A stretch of DNA of 63,984 nucleotides, the filler included, from a bacterium (GTDB lineage: Bacteria; UBA9089; CG2-30-40-21; SBAY01): assembly GCA_040757115.1 (NCBI GenBank). It is 14 parts of 14 records of this genome, joined end to end, with 100 filler letters (N's around TTAATTAATTAA, not from the genome) between each part and the next. Parts side by side here need not be neighbours in the genome. Positions count along the whole stretch, not along the records: positions 9,678 to 14,363 come from JBFLYA010000282.1; 13 more parts are not named here. The stretch is one strand, 5' to 3'. Numbering within the stretch: the stretch's first letter is position 1; the number at the start of each line of letters is the position of its first letter. The notes below the pieces were generated by a model, which saw nothing but the letters and a program-made list of their open reading frames with translations, was not told the origin of the DNA and did not search any database. The position numbers were made by a program, and so were the translations under genes. Below are positions 4,745-14,561 of the stretch, one piece after another.

Positions 4745-4844
4745 NNNNNNNNNNNNNNNNNNNNNNNNNNNNNNNNNNNNNNNNNNNNTTAATTAATTAA
4801 NNNNNNNNNNNNNNNNNNNNNNNNNNNNNNNNNNNNNNNNNNNN
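4745..4844. other. Artificial contig linker (first of 13)
   Basis: N44-TTAATTAATTAA-N44; others start at 9578, 14364, 19149, 23755, 28294, 32812, 37326, 41836, 46329, 50762, 55193, 59589. Confidence 0.98.
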
Positions 4845-4942
4845 GGCAGAGGGCAGAAGGCAGAGGGCAGAAGGCAGAAGGCAGAAGGCAGAGGGCAGAA
4901 GGCAGAGGGCAGAAAGCAGAGGACAGAAGGCAGAGGACAGAA
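4845..4942 (+). repeat. Heptamer tandem array (GGCAGAG/GGCAGAA)n
   Basis: About 14 imperfect 7-mers; a family A right end follows at 5030-5041. Confidence 0.85.
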
Positions 4943-5049
4943 GGAGGAAAAACCTTCAACCTGATTACGGACACGGAAAACGGACACAATTTACGAATTT
5001 TCAGTGTTTTATCTGTGTCCATCCGTGGGCTGAATAGTTACTTAAAATC

Positions 5050-9372: not shown

Positions 9373-9677
9373 ATTTTTAATTATAACACAGGGAATAGCA
9401 AAATGCAAGAAAAAAGGAAGAAAACCTTCAATTCAGACATAAAAAAAGAAGATATATAGCAGTTATTAGTCAAAACTTTACTCAGAGTGGATAAGTAAAA
9501 AAAATCCCAAATCCCAAGCACCAAATCTCAAATAAACACCAAATTCCACATACCAAAAAGCGAATTAGAGATTAGTGNNNNNNNNNNNNNNNNNNNNNNN
9601 NNNNNNNNNNNNNNNNNNNNNTTAATTAATTAANNNNNNNNNNNNNNNNNNNNNNNNNNNNNNNNNNNNNNNNNNNN

Positions 9678-9798
9678 AAGTTCAGGTGCGGCGGGGAGGA
9701 TTACCACAAAAGTTTGATAGCAAGATAAAACTTTGAGAGACCACAAAACTCTGACCACCGCACAGTCCCCCGCCGTCAACTGCAACGCAGGGTTAGAC
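9678..9798 (-). repeat. attC site (cut by contig edge)
   Basis: Minus strand GTCTAACCCTGCGTTGCAGTTGACGGCGG...CCGCCGCACCTGAACTT; near-identical to 12850, 14129, 14562. Confidence 0.85.
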
Positions 9799-9887
9799 AA
9801 AAGCCCTGATTCGCTGTCTTTTCCTTTTCCTCTGCCTCACCGAATTATTCATTCACGGTTGACCCTAAAATATCCTTTTTTCTTAAT

Positions 9888-10676
9888 TCACAATTCAAGA
9901 TGTGACCCCTGACCCTCTGACCCTGCTCTGCCCCCTGACCCTGCTTCTAAATCATCATGTGAACATTTAGACAATCTTTTTTCTAATCTTTCAATTACTT
10001 CTGGCTCTTGTTTTCCAATTATTTGTAATATCGATTCTTGAATCGAAATTGCTACATTTACTTCACCAAGGGCTTTTTGCAATTTTTTTATTCTTTTGTC
10101 TCTCCACCAATAAGATGGACCGCCATCGTCATTCATATATTTGCTCTGTAATTCTGAAACACCATATAATCTATTAGGCAAATCGGATACCTTTACTAGT
10201 TGAAGTTGGCAAATAGGAATATATGGAAATATTTTTATAGGATTATTACCAAAATTTATTAACTGCAATGGCATATGTCCACGGTATCCAGGATTTATAA
10301 AATCGCCAGTTAAGTGTATCATTATTCCAAGTCTTGCAAAACTACTCCGTCCTGAAATTTTGCCAGCACATTCATTTGGAATTGTGAATTCTTCATAAAT
10401 CCTTCCAAGAAGTAATTTCCCAGGTTTTAATGTTATATGTTCTCCTTTATTAAGAATTACTTTTTTATAATATCTTCTCGGCTCGATTTCCAAAAGTTTA
10501 GTTTTACGTAAGTCAATGGTGAATCTTTTGCGTGGAATCCAAAAAATATTGTCAAGTCTTAAATCAACAGAACATGGTTGTATCTGATCATCTGGAACGA
10601 AAGGATTTTCGGAATTATTTGCAACAAAATTTATCTCAGGTAATTTTTTATAAATATCTTTATCACAAAGATACAT
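9888..10676 (-). CDS. dcd: dCTP deaminase (trimeric dUTPase-fold Dcd family) with C-terminal extension; last ~20 aa come from repeat DNA
   Basis: QIQPCSVDLRL, GRSSFARLG, INPGYRG, ICQL motifs; inside an attC-bounded cassette. Confidence 0.85.
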   Translation of the reverse strand: MYLCDKDIYKKLPEINFVANNSENPFVPDDQIQPCSVDLRLDNIFWIPRKRFTIDLRKTKLLEIEPRRYYKKVILNKGEHITLKPGKLLLGRIYEEFTIPNECAGKISGRSSFARLGIMIHLTGDFINPGYRGHMPLQLINFGNNPIKIFPYIPICQLQLVKVSDLPNRLYGVSELQSKYMNDDGGPSYWWRDKRIKKLQKALGEVNVAISIQESILQIIGKQEPEVIERLEKRLSKCSHDDLEAGSGGRAGSEGQGSHLEL

Positions 10677-10685
10677 ATCATTTTC

Positions 10686-10889
10686 CTATTTTATAAACCA
10701 ACTTTTTATATTCTTTAACGCGAATGATCTTTCAGCATTTTTATCTATATCAAATGCATCAAGTAGCCATTGATTTTCTGGATGCCAATCTGTTTTCCCG
10801 AACCAAATTTTATTAGGTATAATTTTTCTTATTGCTGTTTCGCCACGGTAATTTGTATAAAGAATACTTACGATTTTTTCGGTATCCAT
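10686..10889 (-). CDS. Stand-alone WYL-domain protein (67 aa)
   Basis: ILYTNYRGE..RKIIP...QWLLDAFDIDKNAERSFALKNI; ATG at 10889 after an AAGGA RBS; 9 bp upstream of dcd. Confidence 0.75.
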   Translation of the reverse strand: MDTEKIVSILYTNYRGETAIRKIIPNKIWFGKTDWHPENQWLLDAFDIDKNAERSFALKNIKSWFIK

Positions 10890-10924
10890 TATCCATTCCT
10901 TTTTTAAACGATTGTCTCTATACT

Positions 10925-11053
10925 TGCTAACGATGAGTTCAGCGGCGGGGAGAATCGCCACCAAACTTTGTAAGCACGATTACCTATTGAGATACTATAA
11001 AACTTTCAATCACGGCACAGCCCCCCGCCGTCCGCTGCAACGATTTGTTAGAC
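10925..11053 (-). repeat. attC site
   Basis: Minus strand GTCTAACAAATCGTTGCAGCGGAC...CCGCTGAACTCATCGTTAGCA; the upstream ORF stop lies inside GTCTAAC. Confidence 0.92.
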
Positions 11054-11827
11054 GCAACGTTCGTTGCTCCATGCCTGTTTCCAAACCTGAAAGTTATAAT
11101 CAGTATGCATCGAGGTTAAAGCCGCTATCATCCCTTCAATCATGTTTTCCAGACTAGATATGACCTCTCCACCAACCAAGACACTTATAATTGTTCCGCC
11201 AGTACCAGCACCATGTGGCTCTAATTCAAGACGATACCATTCCGCAAACTCTTTAGCCTTATTTTCAAAATATTCCCTTGGATCTCTCCCGTTAAAATGT
11301 TTAGGTGGATATACCTTGGCTATATCAACAAGTATCTCTATCAATTCTTCAATAACTATACTGTTCCCCTCTTTCATATCTGAAGTTATGCCAGAATCCC
11401 ATTTAGGCTGAGCCTTTCTATAAGCCGCTTTTCTTCTCTTTGGCAAGGACACAAATAAATCATTAGATATTGTTCCATATTTAATAGAGTTTAAATAATC
11501 ATTATTGCTTTTATCCACATAACAGCTTATGTCCTCTGGCCCCTCGTTTATATCTCGCCTATTTTTTACTCGACGAATCCAATCGTCCCTATACAATATT
11601 ACTTGCCTGGGTTCTAACTTTCTATCAAACCCTCCCTTTATTTGCGTATCACGGTGGCAGTCAAAACATAATACAGCTAAATTACTGATATCAGAGTTGC
11701 TTGAATTTTCATCGATATGATGAATTTGAACCGGCTTTCCACGTAAACGACATATGCAACACATTCGATCTGATTCGAAAAGAACTTTCGCCGCAACTTC
11801 GTCAGGTATCCTTGTTCTATTCTTCAT
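11048..11827 (-). CDS. HNH endonuclease-domain cassette protein with an unknown helical C-terminal domain
   Basis: CCIC...QIHHID...N...NLAVLCFDCH; cassette bounded by complementary GTTAGAC / GTCTAAC. Confidence 0.8.
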   Translation of the reverse strand: MKNRTRIPDEVAAKVLFESDRMCCICRLRGKPVQIHHIDENSSNSDISNLAVLCFDCHRDTQIKGGFDRKLEPRQVILYRDDWIRRVKNRRDINEGPEDISCYVDKSNNDYLNSIKYGTISNDLFVSLPKRRKAAYRKAQPKWDSGITSDMKEGNSIVIEELIEILVDIAKVYPPKHFNGRDPREYFENKAKEFAEWYRLELEPHGAGTGGTIISVLVGGEVISSLENMIEGMIAALTSMHTDYNFQVWKQAWSNERCV

Positions 11828-11858
11828 TTTCGCAATTTCCTTTTTGTTGTGAGCGTGC

Positions 11859-11990
11859 GTCTAACGATTGAGTTCAGCGGCGGCGGGGAGAATTACCCCT
11901 AAACTTTGTAAGCAAGATAAAACTTTGATAACCCACAAACTTTTGAAAAGCAGTTAGCCCCCCGCCGTCCGCTGCAACGACTTGTTAGAT
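11859..11990 (-). repeat. attC site
   Basis: Minus strand ATCTAACAAGTCGTTGCAGCGGAC...CCGCTGAACTCAATCGTTAGAC. Confidence 0.92.
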
Positions 11991-12021
11991 GGTTTTTTAT
12001 AAGTGTTGCCTGTTTGGAGAA

Positions 12022-12399
12022 TTAGAACTCTACAAACTCTTCTGGATAGTGAGAAAGATCCAGTTTTTCTTCATCGGGAATAGGACGAATTCCCCACTGT
12101 TGCATAGCCAAGGCTCCAAAAAGCACCTCAATGGACTTGCCATCTTCATCATCGCCAATCTGGTCAATGACCATCGCGTGAGTGGAGATTAGGTGTCCTT
12201 CTACTTCTGCCTGAAGAAGTGCTGTTCTGTTGGTTTCTTTCACTTCTCCACCTAGTGCACTTCGGATCGGGTGAGGCATTTCCGAAGTGGTAAGGACCGA
12301 TGCAACCGTGGGGATTACATAAGTATTGCGAGCCCCCGTGTCGAACAACGTCCAACACTTCCGTCCGTCAATTTTAATCATCTGCCGTATTCTTCCCAC
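12022..12399 (-). CDS. Retropepsin-like (clan AA) aspartic protease cassette
   Basis: TLFDTGA catalytic motif, VLFGALAMQ; GGAGG RBS before GTG. Confidence 0.8.
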   Translation of the reverse strand: MGRIRQMIKIDGRKCWTLFDTGARNTYVIPTVASVLTTSEMPHPIRSALGGEVKETNRTALLQAEVEGHLISTHAMVIDQIGDDEDGKSIEVLFGALAMQQWGIRPIPDEEKLDLSHYPEEFVEF

Positions 12400-12456
12400 A
12401 ATGTACCTCCTTTTGTTTCCATTTTGCTATAAAACACTCTGTTAATTTTTACTGCC

Positions 12457-12588
12457 ACCTAACGATAAAGCTCACCTGCTGCGGGGAGGACTACCACTAA
12501 AGTTTATAAGCAAAATAAAAGCTTCAGATACCACAAAACTCTAACTACGGTACAGCCCCCCGCAGTCAGGTGCAGCGCCGGGTTAGGC
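12457..12588 (-). repeat. attC site
   Basis: Minus strand GCCTAACCCGGCGCTGCACCTGAC...GCAGGTGAGCTTTATCGTTAGGT. Confidence 0.92.
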
Positions 12589-12849
12589 AATATCCCCTAG
12601 ACTCAAGGTCTCCTCTGCTTGATTAGATTTTGCTCTCCTCTGTAGTTTCTATCTACGGTTGTAGTATGTCTCTCGTCATTCGTTTTGGTTGTGCTTCTCG
12701 GTCCCTCAACCACATACCCTGCTTCTCTGTAGATGCTGACCGCTATCTGATTTTCTCTGGTTCGTCTCTGCGGGAATGCTGTGAGAAACCTTCATCCTGT
12801 TTGCCGCACCAGTGGTAATTGTATCATAATTTATGCGATGGATTCAAGT
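12589..12849 (-). other. ORF-less gene cassette with a candidate promoter
   Basis: Bounded by GTTAGGC / GCCTAAC; no credible ORF; TTGAAT-18 bp-TACAAT with extended TG near its 5' end. Confidence 0.6.
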
Positions 12850-12981
12850 GCCTAACGATAAAGTTCAGGTGCGGCGGGGAGAATTACCACAAAAGTTTGA
12901 TAGCAAGATAAAACTTTGAGAGACCACAAAACTCTGACCACGGCACAGTCCCCCGCCGTCAACTGCAACGCAGGGTTAGAC
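12850..12981 (-). repeat. attC site
   Basis: Minus strand GTCTAACCCTGCGTTGCAGTTGAC...GCACCTGAACTTTATCGTTAGGC. Confidence 0.92.
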
Positions 12982-13167
12982 AAAAGCTCTGATTCGCTGT
13001 CTTTTCCTTTTCCTCTGCCTCACCGAATTATTGTGCATTCCACATTCACGGTTGACCCTAAAATATCTCCTTTTTATTTTCTCACACAAAGCCACAAAGA
13101 ACACAAAGGTTTATTGTTTTATTCAATTCCTTTGTGACTTTGTGTCTCTGTGTGATTATTTTTATTA
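12982..13167 (-). other. ORF-less cassette built from repeat remnants (multi-copy 3' part)
   Basis: Bounded by GTTAGAC / GTCTAAC; holds an empty cacaaag/ctttgtg inverted pair and a half family G REP; 3' part recurs at 9799, 14261, 14464. Confidence 0.7.
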
Positions 13168-13227
13168 GTCTAACGACCGAGCTCACCTGCCCACCTTAGG
13201 CGGATCAGGTGCAGCGATGGGTTAGGC
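13168..13227 (-). repeat. Short (60 bp) attC site
   Basis: Minus strand GCCTAACCCATCGCTGCACCTGATCCGCC...GGGCAGGTGAGCTCGGTCGTTAGAC; upstream ORF stop inside GCCTAAC. Confidence 0.9.
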
Positions 13228-14106
13228 TTTTTTAATTTCCTGTTCAAATTGCTTAAGCTTCTCACGACATTTTTTCAATGATAATCTACGCAGTTTCTTT
13301 ACCCTTTCCGCTAAGTATTCCAGTTCAGATTTGGTAATCTTGTATGATTTTTTGTATCTTGCATCAACATAGGCTTTTTTAAGGAGTTCAAACAATCTCT
13401 TTTCTTCACCTTCTTTTCTTGGAAAGATCTTACAGAAATCCTGGTCAATCTTCTCCATCCTCTTGGTCAGTTTCTCTAAATCATGGGTTCTGGGTTTGTA
13501 ACCAGTAAGGACAAGGGAAGTGCCCGTGTATAGGGCTTCAGCAGTCTGGTGGAGTTCAAAAGCGGCTTTGTTATAATTTTTATCTCCAATTGCATACCCA
13601 TAATGCTTAAAAGATACCTTTGCATTCTTAAACCAAGTCTTATAATCCTCCTCTGCCAGCTTCTTCTTCATTCCCGGAGTAAGCTTTCTTGCCCTGGCTA
13701 ATTGGAACCTCTTTGAGTCATAGAGTAAGATGCCCTCTTTTTTGATGTCAGCATAGAAGTATCTGCCAACCGAGAGTTGTTCATTGACATGCTCAATATC
13801 CTCAATGATTAAGCTTACCGGGGTAGGGATTTTACGGCTGATCTGATTCTCTACCTTTCCCCAGATCTTAAAATCCTCAGGCTTTTTCTCATCCTTTACA
13901 ATCACCATAATGTCAAAGTCAGACTCATAGCTGGTAAAGTGCCCTTCTTCTTTATCATAGCGAAAGTCAGAGTCAACAAAGTCTCCCCTGGCATAGCTAC
14001 CAAAGAGAATGATCATCTCTACCCTGGTGGCATGAGAGATAAGCTTGGTAATAGTCTCCAATTCCCTCTGTTTCCTGAAAGGAAGATGGTCTATGCTTGT
14101 TTTCAT
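13222..14106 (-). CDS. MNT nucleotidyltransferase-HEPN fusion cassette protein
   Basis: ILFGSYARG...SDFDI (MNT); AAFELHQTAE, RTHDL, AYVDARY (HEPN). Confidence 0.88.
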   Translation of the reverse strand: MKTSIDHLPFRKQRELETITKLISHATRVEMIILFGSYARGDFVDSDFRYDKEEGHFTSYESDFDIMVIVKDEKKPEDFKIWGKVENQISRKIPTPVSLIIEDIEHVNEQLSVGRYFYADIKKEGILLYDSKRFQLARARKLTPGMKKKLAEEDYKTWFKNAKVSFKHYGYAIGDKNYNKAAFELHQTAEALYTGTSLVLTGYKPRTHDLEKLTKRMEKIDQDFCKIFPRKEGEEKRLFELLKKAYVDARYKKSYKITKSELEYLAERVKKLRRLSLKKCREKLKQFEQEIKKA

Positions 14107-14128
14107 ATTAGTCCTCACTGATTCAGTT

Positions 14129-14260
14129 GTCTAACGATGAAGTTCAGGTGCGGCGGGGAGGATTGCCACAAAAGTTTGATAACAAGACAAAACTTTGATA
14201 AACCACAAAACTCTGACCACGGCACAGTCCCCCGCTGTCAACTGCAACGCAGGGTTAGAC
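14129..14260 (-). repeat. attC site
   Basis: Minus strand GTCTAACCCTGCG...CTGAACTTCATCGTTAGAC; near-identical to 12850-12981. Confidence 0.92.
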
Positions 14261-14561
14261 AAAAGCTTTGATTCGCTGTCTTTTCCTTTTTCTCTGCCTC
14301 ACCGAATTATTGTGCATTCCACATTCACGGTTTGACCCTAAAATATCTCCTAAAATATCTCCTNNNNNNNNNNNNNNNNNNNNNNNNNNNNNNNNNNNNN
14401 NNNNNNNTTAATTAATTAANNNNNNNNNNNNNNNNNNNNNNNNNNNNNNNNNNNNNNNNNNNNAAATAAAAAGGAGATATTTTAGGGTTAACCGTGAATG
14501 TGGAATGCACAATAATTCGGTGAGGCAGAGGAAAAGGAAAAGACAGCGAATCAAAGCTTTT

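Follow-up and report, generated by a model that had tools for sequence, protein, structure and literature searches.

What does an integron cassette do that carries a bare 67-residue WYL-fold protein directly upstream of a gene annotated as a deoxycytidine triphosphate (dCTP) deaminase? The question is raised by a 63,984-nucleotide stretch of DNA, hereafter the window, from an environmental bacterium (GenBank assembly GCA_040757115.1), in which such a pair occupies positions 9888 to 10889 on the minus strand. A sequence-only reading had proposed a new nucleotide-depletion defence system, in which a Dcd-family deaminase with an extra C-terminal region would deplete dCTP or load DNA with uracil under the control of a separate WYL sensor. 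Our analysis partly supports that interpretation: the pairing recurs and the extra region is conserved, and deamination is unlikely. We give a probability of roughly one half to the reading that the pair is a mobile module in which a pseudo-enzyme head at the membrane serves as sensor and effector of an abortive-infection or toxin–antitoxin (TA)-like conflict system, with the small partner as its regulator.

A long-form Dcd-like family with a hydrophobic C-terminus

The Dcd-like protein of the window has 532 relatives at E <= 0.001, the best 120 of which are mostly 314–358 aa long and come from many phyla. Full-length members of this long form, at about 335 aa, are built from four parts (alignment A1): the Dcd barrel (residues 1–185); a nearly invariant YMDDDGGPSYWWRDKRIK stretch with the conserved linker YMDDDGGPSYWWRD; a helical region of three short helices; and two long hydrophobic helices arranged as a C-terminal hairpin, followed by a short conserved tail. 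The extra C-terminal region that had been picked out in the single window copy is therefore a family feature, conserved throughout this alignment. The AlphaFold model of the full-length protein of locus L002 (pLDDT 83.1) places the long helices at residues 246–285 and 293–314, and a hydrophobic 19-residue segment (Kyte-Doolittle mean of at least 1.4) lies past residue 240 in 110 of 114 relatives of at least 300 aa and in none of the six shorter ones, among them the window copy. Such a two-helix hydrophobic hairpin favours a membrane-acting protein over a soluble metabolic enzyme. A profile of the C-terminal half retrieved 148 representatives among 1.84 billion, nearly all of them long Dcd proteins or fragments. 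The idea that this half is a portable effector carried on other heads found no support there, the sole clear exception among the 148 being a form fused to DUF1653.

In a quick maximum-likelihood tree of Dcd domains, 26 long-form domains lie on one side of a branch (SH-aLRT 99, length 1.03) and 55 short-form domains on the other. Long-form Dcd-like proteins are a clade apart from the sampled canonical Dcd, and a grouping with housekeeping enzymes, on which the earlier proposal would have foundered, did not appear. Branching order within the long-form clade is at odds with taxonomy, and the window copy clusters with sequences of a Zixibacteria-like, a Planctomycetota and a Bryobacteraceae metagenome-assembled genome. 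The ESM Atlas returned only 'dCTP deaminase' clusters. Among 2.9 million viral contigs the long form makes up one of 37 Dcd loci, and it was not found in 72,556 plasmid and 50,697 phage records, in which no record among 74 plasmid and 116 phage matches covers at least 80% of the query.

Substitutions at the Dcd active site

Aligned to the Mycobacterium tuberculosis and Escherichia coli structures, the canonical motif IDPG(F/W).G...LE reads INPG(Y/W).G...LQ in the long form. In the window copy, whose motif INPGYRGHMPLQLIN begins at residue 127, E. coli Asp128 and Glu138 correspond to Asn128 and Gln138. The catalytic base of Dcd is Glu138, and E138 variants of the E. coli enzyme were reportedly made as inactive forms for structural work; the sequence VLDFYN in PDB entry 2v9x agrees with such mutational work on the residue. 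The two positions are occupied as follows.

Best 120 relatives, 117 matched by the pattern: position 128, N 117; position 138, Q 81, E 35, I 1
Long-form genome loci, 24 of 25 matched: position 128, N 24; position 138, Q 21, E 1, I 1, T 1
Short-form genome loci, 40 of 55 matched: position 128, D 40; position 138, E 40
Metagenome loci, 40 matched: position 128, N 40; position 138, Q 35, E 5
DUF1653-fused subfamily, 42 sequences: position 128, N 42; position 138, T 16, V 8, S 5, E 4, Q 3, I 2, A 2, L 1, F 1

R110, S111, S112, R115, H121 and S178-K179-Y180 are invariant or nearly so in the family (alignments A1 and A4), and the triphosphate-binding residues, including the C-terminal K/Y lid, are kept when aligned to 1xs1 and 2qxx. 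The profile match and the barrel are thus present, and Glu138 and Asp128 are replaced; with these two defining residues missing, we do not count the long form as a full member of the Dcd family. As position 138 drifts among Q, E, T, V and S, its residue is probably not catalytic here. The simplest reading of these substitutions is a nucleotide-binding head that no longer deaminates. The proposed dCTP depletion or uracil loading by deamination was not sustained: with Gln138 in the window copy and most relatives, Asn128 throughout and a hydrophobic hairpin behind the barrel, depletion of dCTP by long-form proteins appears unlikely.

Two alternative partner genes

A WYL-like gene lies directly upstream on the same strand at 11 of 25 long-form genome loci, and a DUF1653 gene adjoins at 14 of 25; one locus (L007) has both, and one (L008, 171 nt) has too little upstream DNA. 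Neither partner occurs at any of the 55 short-form genome loci or the 36 short-form viral loci, and the single long-form viral contig has the WYL gene upstream. Reciprocally, a long Dcd gene follows on the same strand, 3–123 nt downstream, at 54 of the best 80 small-WYL metagenome loci, a count that is not of fully independent cases because several of these loci are near-duplicates; one of the 80 is too short to tell. Linkage to WYL is accordingly conserved, as had been suspected, with the amendment that WYL is not the only partner, since DUF1653 replaces or joins it.

The DUF1653 gene is downstream on the same strand in a Solirubrobacterales clade and convergent in three Planctomycetota loci. 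DUF1653 matches the solved uncharacterised protein 3be3, and homology between it and the WYL-like domain was not detectable by hhalign (probability 0.08). Of the relatives of P0259, 40 of 42 (P0259, P0269-P0308) are proteins of about 500 aa that begin with DUF1653, continue with a Dcd-like domain and end in a hydrophobic tail, and fusions of the WYL-like domain with DUF1653, about 150 aa long, also occur. The gene order, the 9-nt spacing and the finding of an intact partner beside a broken large gene in the window would suit a type II TA pair, in which a small upstream gene neutralises a toxic downstream one; DUF1653 partners stand downstream or on the opposite strand. Complex prediction for the L002 long Dcd protein and its WYL partner (alignments A4 and A5) scored 0.00 against a mark of 0.32, a result that says nothing either way.

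The 67-residue partner in the window scores under the Pfam PF13280 gathering threshold (19.6 versus 21.8 bits) and matches a PADLOC WYL model at 1.5e-5. Ten of 12 family members of the small WYL match PF13280 at E <= 0.01 (best 1.6e-5). Its AlphaFold model is confident (pLDDT 94.5) and has five strands; the top 31 Foldseek rows are all WYL proteins (TMq 0.62–0.75, best E 1.3e-3), the closest folds being the WYL domains of BrxR, PafBC, CapW and DriD (TMq about 0.7). Given the PADLOC match, the PF13280 matches of ten of 12 relatives and the confident model, the WYL assignment stands.

A WYL-like module of about 60 residues, ILYTNYRGETA.R.I.P..IWFG.TEWHPE.QWLL.A.D.EK.A.R.FA.KDI, recurs at 55–70% identity (P0310-P0429). 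It is fused to NUDIX, RNase HI, a Lar-like zinc ribbon (PF14354), PF04447, flavin reductase and DUF1653, and is found as tandem copies and in long Agrobacterium proteins. The module is apparently promiscuous and uncharacterised in its own right.

The window copy and its cassette

The arrangement first read from the sequence, a 67-aa WYL gene 9 bp upstream of a Dcd-fold gene within one attC-bounded cassette, holds in its coordinates and its genes. Two attC-like sites on the minus strand bound the cassette, which runs from an R' box at 10931 down to the attC at 9798–9678 and contains the WYL-fold gene, 9 nt and the Dcd-fold gene in that order. Its features are listed below in window coordinates.

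9678..9798, minus strand: attC closing the WYL/Dcd cassette, R'' box GTCTAAC at 9798..9792 (repeat families D3, D5 and D11; alignment of six attC copies)
9799..9887, minus strand: 3' untranslated end of the cassette (repeat family D2, alignment A6)
9888..9944, minus strand: non-homologous tail of the Dcd-like open reading frame (ORF), 18 codons (AGSGGRAGSEGQGSHLEL) and stop (tblastn, alignment A1, sequence)
9945..10676, minus strand: Dcd-like residues 1-244 (Pfam and NCBIfam matches; 89% identity to the 331-aa P0002 over residues 1-244)
10677..10685, minus strand: intergenic spacer of 9 nt, with AGGA overlapping the stop codon of the WYL gene
10686..10889, minus strand: stand-alone WYL-fold gene, 67 aa, intact (profiles, model; 75% identity to the partner gene of locus L002)
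10925..11053, minus strand: attC of the preceding (HNH) cassette, whose R' box GTTAGCA at 10931..10925 is the start of the WYL/Dcd cassette

The Dcd-like ORF (10676..9888) encodes 262 aa and matches Pfam DCD PF22769 (8.2e-32, 110.9 bits) and NCBIfam TIGR02274 dCTP_deam (118.6 bits, cut-off 92.8). Its residues 1–244 cover the barrel, in which N128 and Q138 lie, then the YMNDDGGPSYWWRDKRIK linker and a portion of the helical region; both C-terminal hydrophobic helices are missing. Homology to full-length relatives, which measure about 325–349 aa, stops at residue 244 (window position 9945; tblastn, alignment A1), and the last 18 codons read through heptamer-type repeat DNA resembling GGGTCAG/GGGCAGA, which bears out the earlier suspicion that the C-terminus had been replaced by repeat sequence and the copy damaged. 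A search of the assembly did not recover the roughly 87 missing C-terminal residues at any other place. The public run X1 has a separately built contig that covers 9885–10971 with zero differences at a depth of 275; as the junction is present there too, it did not arise as an error of the genome assembly. Run X1 is possibly the source sample of the genome, so its contig does not count as independent biological support. A look-up for RNA data sets containing this stretch listed none. Damage to the large gene recurs in the family: it is truncated in the window beside its intact partner, and frameshifted in L005 and L026, whereas L002, L024 and L003 (Winogradskyella damuponensis JCM 17633) have intact pairs.

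These observations make it most likely that the window copy, which lost its membrane hairpin by replacement of the 3' end, survives in a sedentary integron array as an inactive remnant. A functional soluble variant is very improbable. In its favour, the reading frame is open and is preceded by an intact partner gene and an AGGA site, the reads-level X1 contig includes the junction at a depth equal to that of the rest of the cassette, and a few further relatives of 232–266 aa occur; yet the final 18 residues match no relative and derive from repeat DNA, the hydrophobic C-terminus is kept in nearly all full-length relatives, and the other short forms have frameshifted tails or break off, still in the conserved region, ahead of the hydrophobic helices.

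A housekeeping Dcd role was also considered and rejected. The gene is the sole TIGR02274 match in the genome, but being truncated, carrying Gln138 and lying in an integron cassette it is no credible housekeeping Dcd. The separate housekeeping dcd that the sequence-only reading had thought worth seeking was not found, as a TIGR02274 search of the assembly, estimated to be 99.87% complete, yielded no second dcd, and a profile search yielded no trimeric dut; three genes of the cytidine/dCMP-deaminase fold are present.

Near contig ends there are heptamer repeats, either GGCAGAG/GGCAGAA with about 16 units in tandem or units resembling GGGTCAG, together with a recurring motif TTCACGGT(C)TGACCC. 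They lie at 4845–4958 and 9888–9944, with D15 copies at 13029, 14308, 40238, 41177, 48993 and 50600. Such repeats probably break the assembly, and one tract of this type replaced the 3' end of the Dcd-like gene in the window.

Integron setting

The host contig is 4,686 bp long (window 9678–14363), and every gene on it is on the minus strand. The genes are separated by repeats of about 125 nt that carry the integron attC boxes (G/C)CTAAC and GTTAG(A/G)(C/T) at opposite ends; the attC at 10925–11053, for instance, reads GCTAAC ... GTTAGAC. R'' and R' boxes of the integron type (RYYYAAC ... GTTRRRY) were found in six aligned attC copies on this contig. The closing attC (9678..9798) has lost its far arm and R' box at the contig end at 9678. 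In DNA folds the boxes and inner arms pair imperfectly, with bulges and extra bases on one side, and the fold energies give weak z-scores (-0.6 to -2.7). The L'' arm of an attC site carries an extra base; by this rule the extra bases in the six-copy alignment place the attC top strand, as we infer it, on the minus strand, which is the gene strand.

The source assembly comprises 4.32 Mb in 462 contigs. It encodes an intact integron integrase well above the NCBIfam cut-off (TIGR02249, 368.6 bits) on contig C322, a different contig from that of the cassette; the genome profile search also gave a second match above the cut-off that contains a stop, and several further fragments. About 134 attC-like copies are spread over 44 contigs, and together with the integrase they identify the contig as a fragment of a large chromosomal integron array. 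Integrase matches lie on C322, C223, C423, C22, C18, C251, C62 and C20, several of them split or partial, and the genome may hold several decayed integron platforms.

About 72 nt of the cassette's 3' end (9799–9870) is common to the ends of two other cassettes, adjoining 12981–13053 and 14260–14332. Across the three cassettes the common ends measure about 72–90 nt and the attC sites are 94–98% alike, which suggests recombination or duplication between cassette ends. Summed contig depth in run X1 over the attC repeats at 9679–9822 and 10927–11070 reaches about 100,000 at 9679–9726 and about 14,000 at 10975–11022, with 275 over the cassette body; the attC family of the WYL/Dcd cassette is very abundant in the X1 community.

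Three neighbouring cassette genes lie on the same strand. The product of 13222–14118 is a 298-aa fusion of a Pol-beta-type nucleotidyltransferase with HEPN (PF18765 and PF05168), a fused form of the MNT-HEPN toxin–antitoxin pair. The gene at 11048–11827 encodes 259 aa with an N-terminal HNH motif and weak ZorE/IscB-like HNH matches, and its stop codon falls within the R'' box of its own attC; that at 12022–12399 encodes a 125-aa retropepsin-like aspartyl protease (PF13650). The window as a whole is made of 15 short contigs (about 1.4–4.8 kb) joined by 100-nt N blocks with TTAATTAATTAA mid-block, at 4745–4844, 9578–9677, 14364–14463 and 11 further places, and features are not readable across the joins.

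Genomic contexts of relatives

Several homologues stand in mobile or defence contexts, as the earlier proposal had anticipated: besides the integron cassette, these include prophages, a type I restriction-modification (RM) operon and neighbouring defence candidates. At L024 the pair is flanked by M and S, two genes of a type I RM operon, and a UvrD-like helicase and a PLD-like gene follow; at L009 its neighbours are a PDC-M51A radical-SAM gene (382 bits) on one side and a Ppl-like gene on the other. L008 has a ParE toxin nearby together with an AriA/GajA-like ATPase, and a PDC-S27 ATPase is near L018. L004, L094 and L168 belong to one type of prophage, with a large terminase and methylases, and a type IV secretion system (T4SS) coupling protein adjoins the pair at L012. 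Other loci have serine recombinases, an IS110 transposase, an integrase, a PIN gene or TA genes. PADLOC was run on 56 chosen neighbours; L024, L009, L008 and L018 are the clear cases of adjacency to defence genes, and many loci lack any such neighbour.

Weighing the mechanism and its alternatives

Under the reading that we put at about one half, the Dcd-fold head would bind a pyrimidine nucleoside or deoxynucleoside triphosphate, (d)NTP, without catalysis and report on its pool, and the C-terminal hairpin would tether the head and act on the membrane. The small beta-barrel partner, WYL-like here and DUF1653 elsewhere, sometimes fused, would regulate the Dcd-like protein or hold it in check. 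By analogy with the WYL domains of DriD and CapW, the WYL-like partner could perhaps sense single-stranded nucleic acid, and the whole module would work as an abortive-infection or addiction system. A more elaborate picture, which we regard as speculative and on balance unlikely, casts the long forms as trimeric nucleotide-gated membrane pores that guard the pyrimidine deoxynucleoside triphosphate (dNTP) pool and kill the infected cell before phage release. Three heads would bind dCTP or a related pyrimidine dNTP at the subunit interfaces, and six transmembrane (TM) helices would form the gate. It would be triggered when a phage destroys or replaces dCTP or when dUTP or modified dCTP appears, or else once single-stranded DNA sensed by the WYL or DUF1653 partner makes that partner release its hold; the pore would then open.

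Several points weigh against a membrane-held conflict module. The membrane hairpin is a prediction from hydrophobicity and a structural model, not from a topology predictor. Loss of catalysis is deduced from two positions, one of which, Asp128, probably takes part in deamination by Dcd; Glu138 is kept in about a third of the close relatives (35 of 117), so deamination may persist in some members. The short-form Dcd sample in the tree was picked with the query's motif patterns and is taxonomically skewed. The reciprocal linkage counts near-duplicates, 25 of 79 informative small-WYL loci have neither a Dcd gene nor a consistent alternative partner, and the WYL-like module, being fused to many unrelated proteins, is not specific to the Dcd-like system. 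Many loci have ordinary neighbours such as transporters and metabolic genes, and in three the long Dcd-like gene stands directly after gyrB (L010, L014) or gyrA (L175), an adjacency that could reflect either a functional connection or an insertion hot spot close to the origin. PADLOC has no model that fits the window protein or the full-length L002 protein, and the association with defence is anecdotal.

The alternatives account for parts of this evidence. An active dCTP deaminase, or deaminase/dUTPase, that drains dCTP or loads uracil on a WYL signal and so starves phage replication is in our view quite unlikely. It would explain why the TIGR02274 cut-off is passed, why the phosphate-binding residues are kept and why a minority of close relatives (35 of 117) retain Glu138, and the WYL linkage and the mobile and defence contexts suit such a role. 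Against it stand Gln138 in the window copy and most relatives, with T, V, S or other residues in the fused subfamily, and Asn128 in all of them, where D and E are both retained in each of the 40 matched canonical Dcd; the E. coli variants said to have been made as inactive forms at this very residue, and the VLDFYN of 2v9x, point the same way, and depletion of a pool needs no conserved membrane hairpin. Alternatively, the pair could have no part in conflict and simply ride on mobile DNA, sensing or regulating pyrimidine dNTP pools or DNA replication from a membrane tether. We consider such a regulator unlikely, though deserving of real weight. The gyrase neighbours and the ordinary surroundings of several loci favour it, as do the Solirubrobacterales copies, a coherent clade with varied chromosomal neighbours, and the fusions of the WYL-like module to the nucleotide-handling enzymes NUDIX, RNase HI and PF04447. 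It fits poorly with a patchy distribution across phyla and a tree at odds with taxonomy, with the occurrence of pairs inside an integron cassette, a prophage and a type I RM operon or next to recombinases and insertion-sequence elements, with recurrent pseudogenisation, and with a single broken copy in a genome that is 99.87% complete.

Finally, the module could serve its carrier element, through superinfection exclusion, lysis timing by a holin-like hairpin or counter-defence, and give the host no immunity. The large terminase and DNA methylases beside the pair at three prophage loci, the T4SS coupling protein at L012 and the fusions of the WYL-like module to Lar-like (PF14354) and other phage-typical proteins speak for this idea, which we nevertheless hold to be improbable: the long form is a single one of the Dcd loci in the viral contigs and is found in none of the phage or plasmid records, and phage genes are absent within 4 kb at most loci.

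Relation to known systems

The long form shares with canonical Dcd (E. coli 1xs1; M. tuberculosis dCTP deaminase:dUTPase 2qxx) a dUTPase-like barrel alignable over residues 1–186 (E 1e-30 to 1e-37), PDB Dcd chains matching the window protein at E down to 2.4e-37, and R110, S111, S112, R115, H121 and the C-terminal SKY lid are common to both. It differs in Asn128 and in the Gln or variable residue at 138, in about 150 additional residues (the YWWRD linker, the helical region and the two-helix hydrophobic hairpin), and in forming a separate clade that is paired with WYL or DUF1653 and found on mobile DNA. Anti-phage dCTP deaminases have a zinc-dependent cytidine-deaminase fold and an N-terminal kinase-like domain; the 'dCTPdeaminase' system of Tal et al. 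2022 and Vibrio AvcD are reportedly of this kind. The substrate is nominally the same by annotation, and the role of the long form would likewise be a nucleotide-centred defence, but its fold is dUTPase-like, it matches 0 PADLOC families, those for dCTP deaminases included, and its catalysis is doubtful.

The WYL regulators BrxR (7qfz), CapW (7tb5/9c5g), DriD (7tzv) and PafBC (6sj9), whose WYL domains bind single-stranded DNA according to the titles of their PDB entries, have the same Sm/SH3-like fold as the 67-aa protein (TMq 0.68–0.75). They are helix-turn-helix transcription factors of 270–640 aa, whereas the 67-aa protein is a bare domain; it therefore would not control transcription in the same way and must work via another protein or a ligand. 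CBASS and Pycsar include abortive-infection modules whose effectors are small membrane-spanning proteins. With modules of this type and with TA modules the pair shares small size, mobility and a patchy distribution, and it would also share a ligand-binding cytoplasmic domain joined to a short TM segment. Unlike the CBASS/Pycsar type, it is without a nearby signal-producing enzyme, and its head would be a pseudo-enzyme of nucleotide metabolism. In concept the pair may come closest to abortive-infection or TA modules of small size whose ligand-binding head sits on a TM segment.

Phage-defence genes in integron cassettes are the subject of a preprint that concerns mobile integrons of clinical plasmids (bioRxiv 10.1101/2024.07.02.601719). 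The cassette studied here is likewise a compact attC-bounded module among TA- and defence-like cassettes (HNH, nucleotidyltransferase-HEPN), and differs in lying in a large chromosomal array of an environmental genome with its main gene broken. The pair was not described in the literature found by full-text search, nor in the main texts of PMC7159879, PMC4012209, PMC13069673 and PMC5512222, whose supplements might list it. The module of WYL or DUF1653 with a long Dcd-like protein is apparently widespread and undescribed.

Significance

If this reading is true, the 'dCTP deaminase' label used in databases covers a widespread protein that is probably no deaminase, and hides a nucleotide-binding pseudo-enzyme that is anchored in the membrane and has a small partner of its own. 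In annotation, long forms can be told from housekeeping Dcd by N128/Q138 in combination with the C-terminal hairpin. The pair would also provide a first functional context for DUF1653 and for a very conserved, promiscuous 60-residue WYL-like module, in a compact two-gene system that would be easy to test. The cassette also shows that modules of this kind, some of them broken, are stored in large chromosomal integrons of environmental bacteria, and the intact module would represent a new sensor-effector design among bacterial conflict systems.

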